Source of the DNA: Pecten maximus
Taxonomy: Eukaryota
Direction: 5' to 3'
Length of the DNA: 64,000 nt
NCBI RefSeq assembly: GCF_902652985.1
Contig: NC_047021.1
Location: 3,534,001 to 3,598,000, forward strand
The number at the start of each line of letters is the position of its first letter. Position 1 is the stretch's first letter. The notes beneath the pieces were generated by a model, which searched no databases, was not told the DNA's origin, and was given only the letters and a program-made list of their open reading frames with translations. The position numbers and the translations under genes were made by a program. Below, in pieces: positions 53,334-56,142 of this stretch.

Positions 53334-56142
53334 ATGGCAGAGCAAGCAGTACTCGTTGACATGGTGAAAAGAGACCCGAATGAGATTAACACTGATGTAC
53401 AGGTAGGGAGATTAACACTGGTGTACAGGTAGGGAGATTAACACTGATGTACAGGTAGGGAGATTAACACTGATCTACAGGTAGGGAGATTAACACTGAT
53501 GTACAGGTAGGGAGATTAACACTGATGTATAGGTAGAGAGATTAACACTGATCTACAGGTAGAGAGATTAACACTGATGAACAGGTAGGGAGATTAACAC
53601 TGATGTACAGGTAGAGAGATTAACACTGATGTACAGGTAGGGAGATTAACACTGATGTACAGGTAGGGAGATTAACACTGATGTACAGGTAGGGAGATTA
53701 ACACTGATGTACAGGTAGAGAGATTAACACTGATCTACAGGTAGGGAGATTAACACTGATGTACAGGTAGGGAGATTAACACTGATCTACAGGTAGGGAG
53801 ATTAATACTGACGTACAGGTAGGGAGATTAACACTGACGTACAGGTAGGGAGATTAACACTGATGTACAGGTAGGGAGATTAACACTGATGTACAGGTAG
53901 GGAGATTAACACTGATGTACAGGTAGGGAGATTAACACTGATGTAGAGGTAGGGAGATTAACACTGATGTACAGGTAGGGAGATTAACACTGATGTACAG
54001 GTAAGGAGATTAACACTGACGTACAGGTAGGTTGTCTTCCCTCTCATGACTTAATCACTTAACTGAGTTTCGATTTCTGAAATGAATTAAGAAATGAAAT
54101 ATTTGAACGTTTGCGAAGATCTGCTAAAATGAATGAGAGACTATATAATCAGATAGCTGACCAGTGTTTAATGTATATGGATACGTTAATTAGCATTGTT
54201 TGAAATAAACAGAAGTAATGCTGGTCCCTAACGATATGGTAGTTCTGGTCCCTAACGATTGGGTAGTTCTGGTCCCTAACGATTGGGTAGTTCTGATCCC
54301 TAATGTTTGGGTAGTTCCGCTCCCTAATGTTTGGATAGTTCCGCTCCCTAACGAATGGGTAGTTCTGGTCCCTAACGATTGGGTACTTCTGGTCCCTAAC
54401 GATTGGGTAGTTCTGGTCCCTAATGATTGGGTAGTTCTGGTCCCTAATGATTGGGTAGTTCTGATCCCTAACGATTGGGTAGTTCTGGTCCCTAACGATT
54501 GGGTAGTTCTGGTCCCTAACGATTGAGTAGTTCTGGTCTCTAACGATTGGGTAGTTCTGGTCCCTAACGATTGGGTAGTTCTGGTCCCTAACGATTGAGT
54601 AGTTCTTGTCCCTAACGATTGGGTAGTTCTGGTCCCTAACGATTGGGTACTTCTGGTCCCTAACGATTGGGTAGTTCTGGTCCCTAACGATTGGGTAGTT
54701 CTGGTCCCTAACGATTGAGTAGTTCTGATCTCTAACGATTGGGTAGTTCTGGTCCCTAACGATTGAGTAGTTCTGGTCTCTAACGATTGGGTAGTTCTGG
54801 TCCCTAACGATTGGGTAGTTCTGATCCCTAACGATTGGGTAGTTCTGGTCCCTAACGATTGGGTAGTTCTGGTCCCTAACGATTGGGTAGTTCTGGTCTC
54901 TAACGATTGGGTAGTTCTGGTCCCTAACGATTGGGTAGTTCTGGTCTCTAACGATTGGGTAGTTCTGGTCCCTAACGATTGGGTAGTTCTGGTCTCTAAC
55001 GATTGGGTAGTTCTGGTCCCTAACGATTGGGTAGTTCTGGTCCCTAACGATTGGGTAGTTCTGATCCCTAATGATTGAGTAGTTCTGGTCCCTAACTAAC
55101 GATTGGGTAGTTCTGGTCCCTAACGATTGGGTAGTTCTGGTCCCTAACGATTGAGTAGTTCTGGTCCCTAACGATTGGGTAGTTCTTGTCCCTAACGATT
55201 GAGTAGTTCTGGTCCCTAACGATTGGGTAGTTCTGGTCCCTAACGAATGGGTAGTTCTGATCCCTAATGATTGAGTAGTTCTGGTCCCTAACTAACGATT
55301 GGGTAGTTCTGATCCCTAACGATTGGGTAGTTCTGGTCCCTAACGATTGGGTAGTTCTGGTCCCTAACGATTGGGTAGTTCTGGTCCCTAACGATTGGGT
55401 AGTTCTGGTCCCTAACGATTGGGTAGTTCTGGTCCCTAACGATTGGGTAGTTCTGGTCCCTAACGATTGGGTAGTTCTGGTCCCTAACGATTGGGTAGTT
55501 CTGGTCCCTAACGATTGGGTAGTTCTGGTCCCTAACTAACGATTGGGTAGTTCTGGTCCCTAACGATTGGGTAGTTCTGGTCCCTAACGATTGGGTAGTT
55601 CTGGTCTCTAATAATTGTTGGTCGCACGGTACAAACAGTTTACTTAAAACATCGATATTCACTATATTTACTATATCGATAATGACGGTAATCAAAATTT
55701 AAAAGATATTCGTAAAACGAATATCGAGTCTGATGCTAAGAAAATGTAGATATATTTTTACCTGAAGTAAAATAAAGTTCATCATGATACATGTACATGT
55801 TTCTTGCAGGCTAATTTTGAAGACGTACTTGCTGAACCTGACGGTACCCACAGCTTTGATTGCATCTGGAAGTTCAGTTACGTGTGTTTCAGTGGAGGGA
55901 AGGATTGCTGCTATAAGTTGCTGAGCACGTTATTTGGTCTGTGTATAGCTCTGTTATGGGGCTGTGAGTTTGCAATTATCACCTTCGAGATGGTATGGTG
56001 CTACACTCCCATGCTAAAAGCCTACACGATTTCCATGGGACTCCAACAGAAGTTCTTCTCTGTTTGTATCAACTGCTGTTTGGCGCCTGTCTGTCAAACT
56101 TGTGGACTTTTCTTCAGTAACATTAATGTTAAGAACGGATAA
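53334..56142 (+). CDS. Caveolin-like protein g9, 133 aa; exons 53334-53402 and 55810-56142
   Basis: Exon 1 MAEQAVLVDMVKRDPNEINTDVQ|GTAGG (first of 25 repeated donors); acceptor TTGCAG|GCT; exon 2 ANFEDVLAEPDGTHSFDCIWKFS...NINVKNG*. Confidence 0.9.
53382..54031. repeat. 26-bp minisatellite spanning the g9 exon1/intron junction (GAGATTAACACTGATGTACAG|GTAGG) x25
   Basis: Exactly 25 units with no indels; the first 21 nt of unit 1 are coding (EINTDVQ). Confidence 0.97.
54218..55612. repeat. 24-bp minisatellite (GTTCTGGTCCCTAACGATTGGGTA)n in the g9 intron
   Basis: About 57 tandem copies; some carry a CTAACTAAC 4-bp duplication. Confidence 0.96.

Follow-up and report, generated by a model that had tools for sequence, protein, structure and literature searches.

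A 26-bp minisatellite carrying 25 copies of a splice donor in a Pecten maximus caveolin gene is probably a tolerated passenger

The closest described system is human F7, in which minigenes showed that the most upstream functional donor excludes both identical and stronger downstream ones (PMC1557585, Borensztajn et al. 2006; this and the other articles cited are represented by their available portions). Further human cases cited in the same article are the interferon-inducible gene 6-16, with 25 pseudo-sites of which the nearest two are also used, CBS intron 13, with 15–20 units and two pseudo-sites used beside the authentic one, LMNB2 (100 bp, 10–15 copies), and PDGF intron 4 (81 bp, 16–18 copies). 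In amphioxus, minisatellite-like duplications at 5' and 3' exon–intron edges, termed mirages, were reported for Adh3, BflGb6 and BflGb9, with unstable length, undisturbed regular splicing, and a distribution that is possibly general in that genome (PMC3087553). No junction-spanning case was found in the available portion of PMC10078293, and no genome-wide survey of such arrays in molluscs was found in the open literature, subscription papers being outside the scope. The array described here, at the first donor of the caveolin gene g9, belongs to this known kind (F7 IVS7 type, amphioxus mirages), and has both the anatomical and the splicing features of junction-spanning minisatellites.

The window analyzed was the whole stretch of 64,000 nt from Pecten maximus (NC_047021.1, positions 3,534,001 to 3,598,000), and all features are given in window coordinates on the + strand unless stated otherwise. 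Exon 2 of g9 matched the Pfam Caveolin family (PF01146) with an E-value of 4.6e-33 and 114.5 bits, above the cut-off of 25; the genome (G000) contains 28 exon-2 matches to caveolin, this one included. Of the ten caveolin genes that are complete in the window, g9 is the ninth, and it lies within a tandem cluster totalling 16 two-exon genes (10200–63100 in the window, C7:3544000–3625100 in G000), and a second caveolin cluster lies near C7:15.74–15.88 Mb. No published account of this expansion was found in literature listings. An additional caveolin exon-1-like sequence at 20108–20170, approximately 400 nt upstream of g3 exon 1, has an ATG and no GT at the donor position, and is probably a dead duplicate, and one exon-2 match (L018, C7:15859040–15859372) is interrupted by a single TAG and is possibly a pseudogene. 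The paralogues g5 and g6, which are nearly identical, have the same 36-bp unit upstream, in 11.6 copies (31933–32362) and 43.5 copies (35296–36868), respectively, showing that array length changes fast after gene duplication.

The 5' end of g9 was placed using a TATA box at 53268–53274, lying approximately 30 nt before the start of the transcript, and assembled RNA contigs covering exon 1 to 53403 (X6 from 53299, X12 from 53318, X15 from 53316). The X6 contig bears a non-genomic adaptor at 53299, which we take to be a 5' template-switch oligo, and the TATA box together with this contig end indicated a first exon of approximately 104 nt (53299–53402), from which all three contigs continue into exon 2. 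The coding part of exon 1 (53334–53402, ATG at 53334) comprises 69 nt or 23 codons and ends in phase 0, and all 17 caveolin exon 1 donors located sit at the same codon. Exon 2 (55810–56479, coding to 56142, ATTAAA at 56450) was identified as the last exon, since contigs cross it without a gap to 56420–56479. The intervening intron 1 is 2407 nt long and 84% tandem array. Besides the array at its donor end, it contains a second, unrelated minisatellite (24 bp, 57.5 copies, 54221–55611), and despite the 51 branch-point-like CTAAC words of the latter, contigs still splice to the acceptor at 55810.

Tandem Repeats Finder reported a period of 26 and 25.0 copies at 53382–54031, with 97.4% identity to unit 1 (17 mismatches in 650 positions), in a window without any N and so without an assembly gap; the 25-fold donor-bearing array of the original prediction was in this way established as real and correctly placed. 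The 26-bp unit comprises the final 21 coding nt of g9 exon 1 and 5 intronic nt. Copy 1 spans the exon 1/intron 1 boundary, the defining feature of junction-spanning minisatellites, and provides the authentic donor (53402|53403), and copies 2–25, within the same interval, are intronic pseudo-donors, AG|GT being kept in 25 of 25 copies as in other arrays of this kind. Exact matches to the unit number 11 across the genome, every one of them at the g9 locus, which indicates a local expansion and not a dispersed repeat family. Shared and private variants among the units follow a non-random order, and no microhomology remains flanking the array.

The donor words of the 25 copies were CAG|GTAGGG (18 copies), CAG|GTAGAG (3), TAG|GTAGAG (1), GAG|GTAGGG (1), CAG|GTAAGG (copy 24, 53998–54006, intron start 54001), and CAG|GTAGGT (copy 25, 54024–54032, followed by unique intron). 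Pairing was computed with the U1 5' end of the same genome, donor strength here meaning U1 duplex energy. By this measure, donor 1 stands at −11.2 kcal/mol and is equalled by 17 copies downstream that share its sequence across −3 to +8, five copies are weaker, and copies 24 and 25 pair slightly better (−11.5 and −11.8 kcal/mol). The stronger CAG|GTAAG donor originally noted at about 54001 is present as copy 24; copy 25 had been overlooked and pairs best with U1, and with donors 1, 24 and 25 separated by only 0.3–0.6 kcal/mol, "stronger" means slightly so. Because copy 25 adjoins the unique intron, CAG|GTAGGT is the probable form of the donor when it was still single; after the expansion, copy 1 would have retained its exon flank and copy 25 its intron flank.

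Translation of the spliced forms bore out that donor 1 is in frame and is the sole productive copy, yielding a protein of 133 aa. Splicing from donor 2 shifts the frame, as predicted, and leads to a stop inside exon 2 after 69 aa. Donors 3–25 retain a TAG at 53430–53432, in frame on read-through of donor 1, and give 32 residues; the premature stop had been anticipated for later donors, and holds for these 23, and with donor 2 the TAG is spliced out. The distance from this TAG to the junction is 22 nt for donor 3, 48 nt for donor 4, and at least 74 nt for donors 5–25. Under the junction rule, nonsense-mediated decay would call for a stop more than 50–55 nt before the last junction, a distance reached with donors 5–25 and not with donors 2, 3 and 4, so that the nearest competitors of donor 1 would escape junction-dependent decay.

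Exon 2 of g9 was present in 18 runs from 7 studies, in all cases as assembled contigs, and seven runs, one per study, were examined (X4, X5, X6, X10, X11, X12, X15). X11 alone is on record as RNA, and in the other runs the spliced join itself shows RNA. Contigs were aligned separately to the two sides of intron 1, not in one joint table. In X5, X10 and X11, exon 2 was entered from unique exon 1 sequence, corresponding to donor 1, and in X6, X12 and X15 exon 1 was left at donor 1 straight to exon 2 with no intervening letters. On contigs only, the donor 1 join was thus found in 6 of 7 runs and a downstream join in 1 of 7, the upstream-most donor being the main one used. Because X4 joins a downstream unit, these runs do not establish the exclusive use of donor 1 that the original prediction had named, if it held regardless of copy number, as refuting it.

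The X4 gene contig (depth 216.5) starts with a unit end and one entire unit, followed by exon 2, and its structure implies that reads with a downstream join exist. This join is compatible with 11 units (3, 5, 9, 11, 12, 13, 15, 19, 20, 21 and 24) and incompatible with reference copy 2. X4 also contains a 56-nt contig made up of consensus units in tandem, whose depth of 5.25 is approximately 2% of gene depth; this ratio suggests a small leak, although contig depth cannot rank parts of one gene. A stretch of 22 shared bases could also have given rise to a reverse-transcription or PCR chimera, so the downstream join reflects either a minor leak or a chimera formed in the library. Exon 1 had no contig coverage in X4, and the downstream join was the only one seen there, so downstream use in this run is not firmly bounded, and this gap was counted as no evidence, because records are filtered and an assembler may clip a transcript's 5' tip. 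Contigs lose rare forms and steady-state RNA conceals decayed ones, so the true leak may exceed this estimate.

Tandem arrays make up 28.6% of the window. Sixty 10-kb stretches surrounding other genes, 600 kb in total, contain 178 arrays, which make up 23% of their length. To place g9 against this background, exon edges were sampled at 227 of 313 exon matches (79 of 82 myosin, 115 of 134 kinesin, and 33 of 97 P450), leaving out matches on small duplicate-looking contigs, eight near-full-length intronless P450s, matches for which DNA was not retrieved, and two with short flanks. Edges of exon matches are not always splice sites, and sites were chosen by a simple score and not by RNA. An array lay nearby at 41 of 454 sampled edges (3 of the 41 had no candidate site and were scored as misses), and the splice site itself was copied on the donor side in 9 of 227 and on the acceptor side in 6 of 227, one acceptor being borderline, so that approximately 3% of sampled exon edges (15/454) carry such arrays. 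In the intronic control, whose points are mutually non-independent, the share falling in the exon-facing unit of an array was 0.9% (17/1868, strict) to 1.7% (90/5376, generous) for donors, and 1.4–2.7% for acceptors. Acceptors were at background (p = 0.59), and donors were 2–4 times over background (p = 0.015, generous control), a possible donor-side excess. All nine donor arrays were in kinesin genes, 9 of 115 versus 0 of 112 for myosin and P450 (Fisher p = 0.003), which makes the excess uneven and a lead only. These kinesin arrays (L130, L131, L171, L184, L187, L194, L195, L197, L207) have 2–52 extra copies, and that of L130 (26 bp, 29.5 copies) is a near twin of the g9 array. The acceptor arrays (L117, L136, L185, L197, L204, L205) have 2–40 extra copies upstream, one being in a myosin and five in kinesins, with L185 the borderline case.

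Within the caveolin genes, 1 of 17 donors located and 1 of 26 acceptors lie within arrays. The acceptor is that of g8 intron 1, where a 26-bp array of 33 copies (48790–49633, with g8 exon 2 starting at 49630) holds 16 YAG|GT copies and mirrors the g9 donor array. In g7, a close paralogue, the sequence flanking the g8 array site can be aligned on either side and no array is present, which shows that this array arose after the duplication, and that such arrays are born in place.

Taken together, the g9 array is probably a tolerated passenger minisatellite and not a copy-number rheostat. It would have started locally when 26 bp spanning the exon 1/intron 1 junction were duplicated, and the variants shared among units suggest that slippage or unequal exchange then enlarged it, much like the dense intronic minisatellites of this genome. 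The first donor presumably wins because no other functional site follows the exon sooner or lies closer to the cap, by analogy with F7 and with work on the cap-binding complex, which helps to bring U1 to the 5' site of the first intron (according to the available portion of PMC7462061); such help may add to the first-donor advantage at the first exon of g9. Since splicing in the assembled RNA is mostly from the first donor, the extra copies leave with the intron, and the array may survive because this donor wins and leaves the copies intronic, while arrays seeded entirely within exons would be purged by selection. A low level of splicing from downstream copies, yielding short, non-functional products, is probable, at a cost that would be too small for selection to clear the array. 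In favor of a tolerated passenger, donor 1 is chosen over 17 identical copies and two slightly better U1 pairers; against it, donor-side arrays look 2–4 times more frequent than the intronic background, an excess not expected if arrays were seeded purely by chance.

Tuning of g9 by donor competition and nonsense-mediated decay, as originally proposed, would mean that more copies cause more unproductive splicing, more decay, and less caveolin. Every downstream donor is indeed unproductive, donors 5–25 place the stop at the distance that the decay rule asks for, a downstream join is present in X4, and in human 6-16 and CBS two pseudo-sites are active in addition to the authentic donor (cited in PMC1557585). 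Documented leak, however, falls on the nearest sites, and would then not depend on total copy number. At g9, donor 1 was used in six of the seven runs, repeat depth in X4 was approximately 2% of gene depth, and donors 2–4 fall short of the 50–55 nt distance. Conservation among related genes, a feature of regulated unproductive splicing, was not seen among the 17 caveolin donors located, where g9 alone has the array, and such arrays are common in this genome; the tuning proposal was therefore not supported, and a rheostat is unlikely. The array could instead be a mildly harmful expansion, costing a few percent of g9 output and buffered by 15 neighboring caveolin genes. The duplication appears to have swapped the ancestral +6 T for G in the authentic copy, and both the possible leak in X4 and the 16-gene cluster fit a small, buffered loss, but g9 is expressed in 18 runs of 7 studies with its frame intact, and donor 1 out-pairs 8 of 10 other caveolin donors in the window for U1, leaving harm of this size quite improbable.

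Stepwise removal of the intron at AG|GT junctions, by recursive splicing, was considered because each unit offers YAG|GT or a similar word and weak branch-like words. The pyrimidine share before AG is 0.35–0.47 in the 24 downstream units versus 0.53–0.88 in 26 real caveolin acceptors, in agreement with the original observation that the junctions lack pyrimidine tracts, and to the detriment of the resemblance to recursive splice sites suggested alongside it. The intron is merely 2407 nt long, and copying of the exon end accounts for AG|GT, so recursive splicing is very improbable. An assembly artefact is just as hard to credit: the copy number of 25 rests on one assembly, but the shared and private unit variants are ordered non-randomly, the independent run X4 carries the 56-nt contig of consecutive units, and the window is gap-free. 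An in-frame micro-exon ladder and intron gain by duplication were also considered, and were rejected on the 26-nt unit length, the lack of a pyrimidine tract, and a unit ATG that is out of frame with exon 2. With these alternatives weighed, a tolerated passenger is the preferred reading.

As a single locus, g9 matters little, repeating the F7, 6-16 and amphioxus pattern in an invertebrate caveolin gene, and it supports the view that position outweighs strength when a first exon's 5' splice site is chosen. If the frequency of approximately 3% holds, one long-read RNA set would contain thousands of natural competitions between identical sites that differ in strength, copy number and unit length, and false micro-exons must be expected in the gene annotation of this genome. 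A true donor excess, if real, would suggest that the birth of repeats is connected with splicing or transcription. It is doubtful that donors are preferred seeds of expansion in this minisatellite-rich genome, with thousands of introns starting in ladders of functional spare donors that vary in length between animals and produce copy-number-dependent heritable noise or tuning of expression genome-wide; if they were, g9 would be one case of a genome-wide leak proportional to ladder length.

Among caveolins, g9 is of the short two-exon invertebrate type and is set in a 16-gene tandem cluster. Its nearest counterpart, as far as the available portion of PMC1557585 describes it, is the 37-bp VNTR of F7 intron 7, in which the first unit likewise lies over the boundary and is followed by identical pseudo-donors, and in which the upstream-most donor is likewise used even against stronger downstream ones, position outranking strength. 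The original prediction had seen in the array a natural test of how identical 5' splice sites are chosen, which it is, and which has already been carried out in F7 (PMC1557585). The two differ in that F7 has 5–9 units, 4 exonic nt per unit, an internal exon and shown polymorphism, whereas g9 has 25 units, 21 exonic nt, a first, cap-proximal exon, an invertebrate host, and a single haplotype in the assembly, which makes it only a putative VNTR, as the original prediction called it. The arrays of 6-16, CBS, LMNB2 and PDGF, as cited there, share the anatomy of g9 at similar copy number, and the minor pseudo-site use in 6-16 and CBS resembles the hint of leak in X4; unlike in these four, every downstream donor in g9 breaks the frame or adds a stop. 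The amphioxus mirages, in the available portion of their description, are the corresponding arrays in another phylum, and for the present genome a rough frequency of such arrays (15 of 454 edges) has now been measured.
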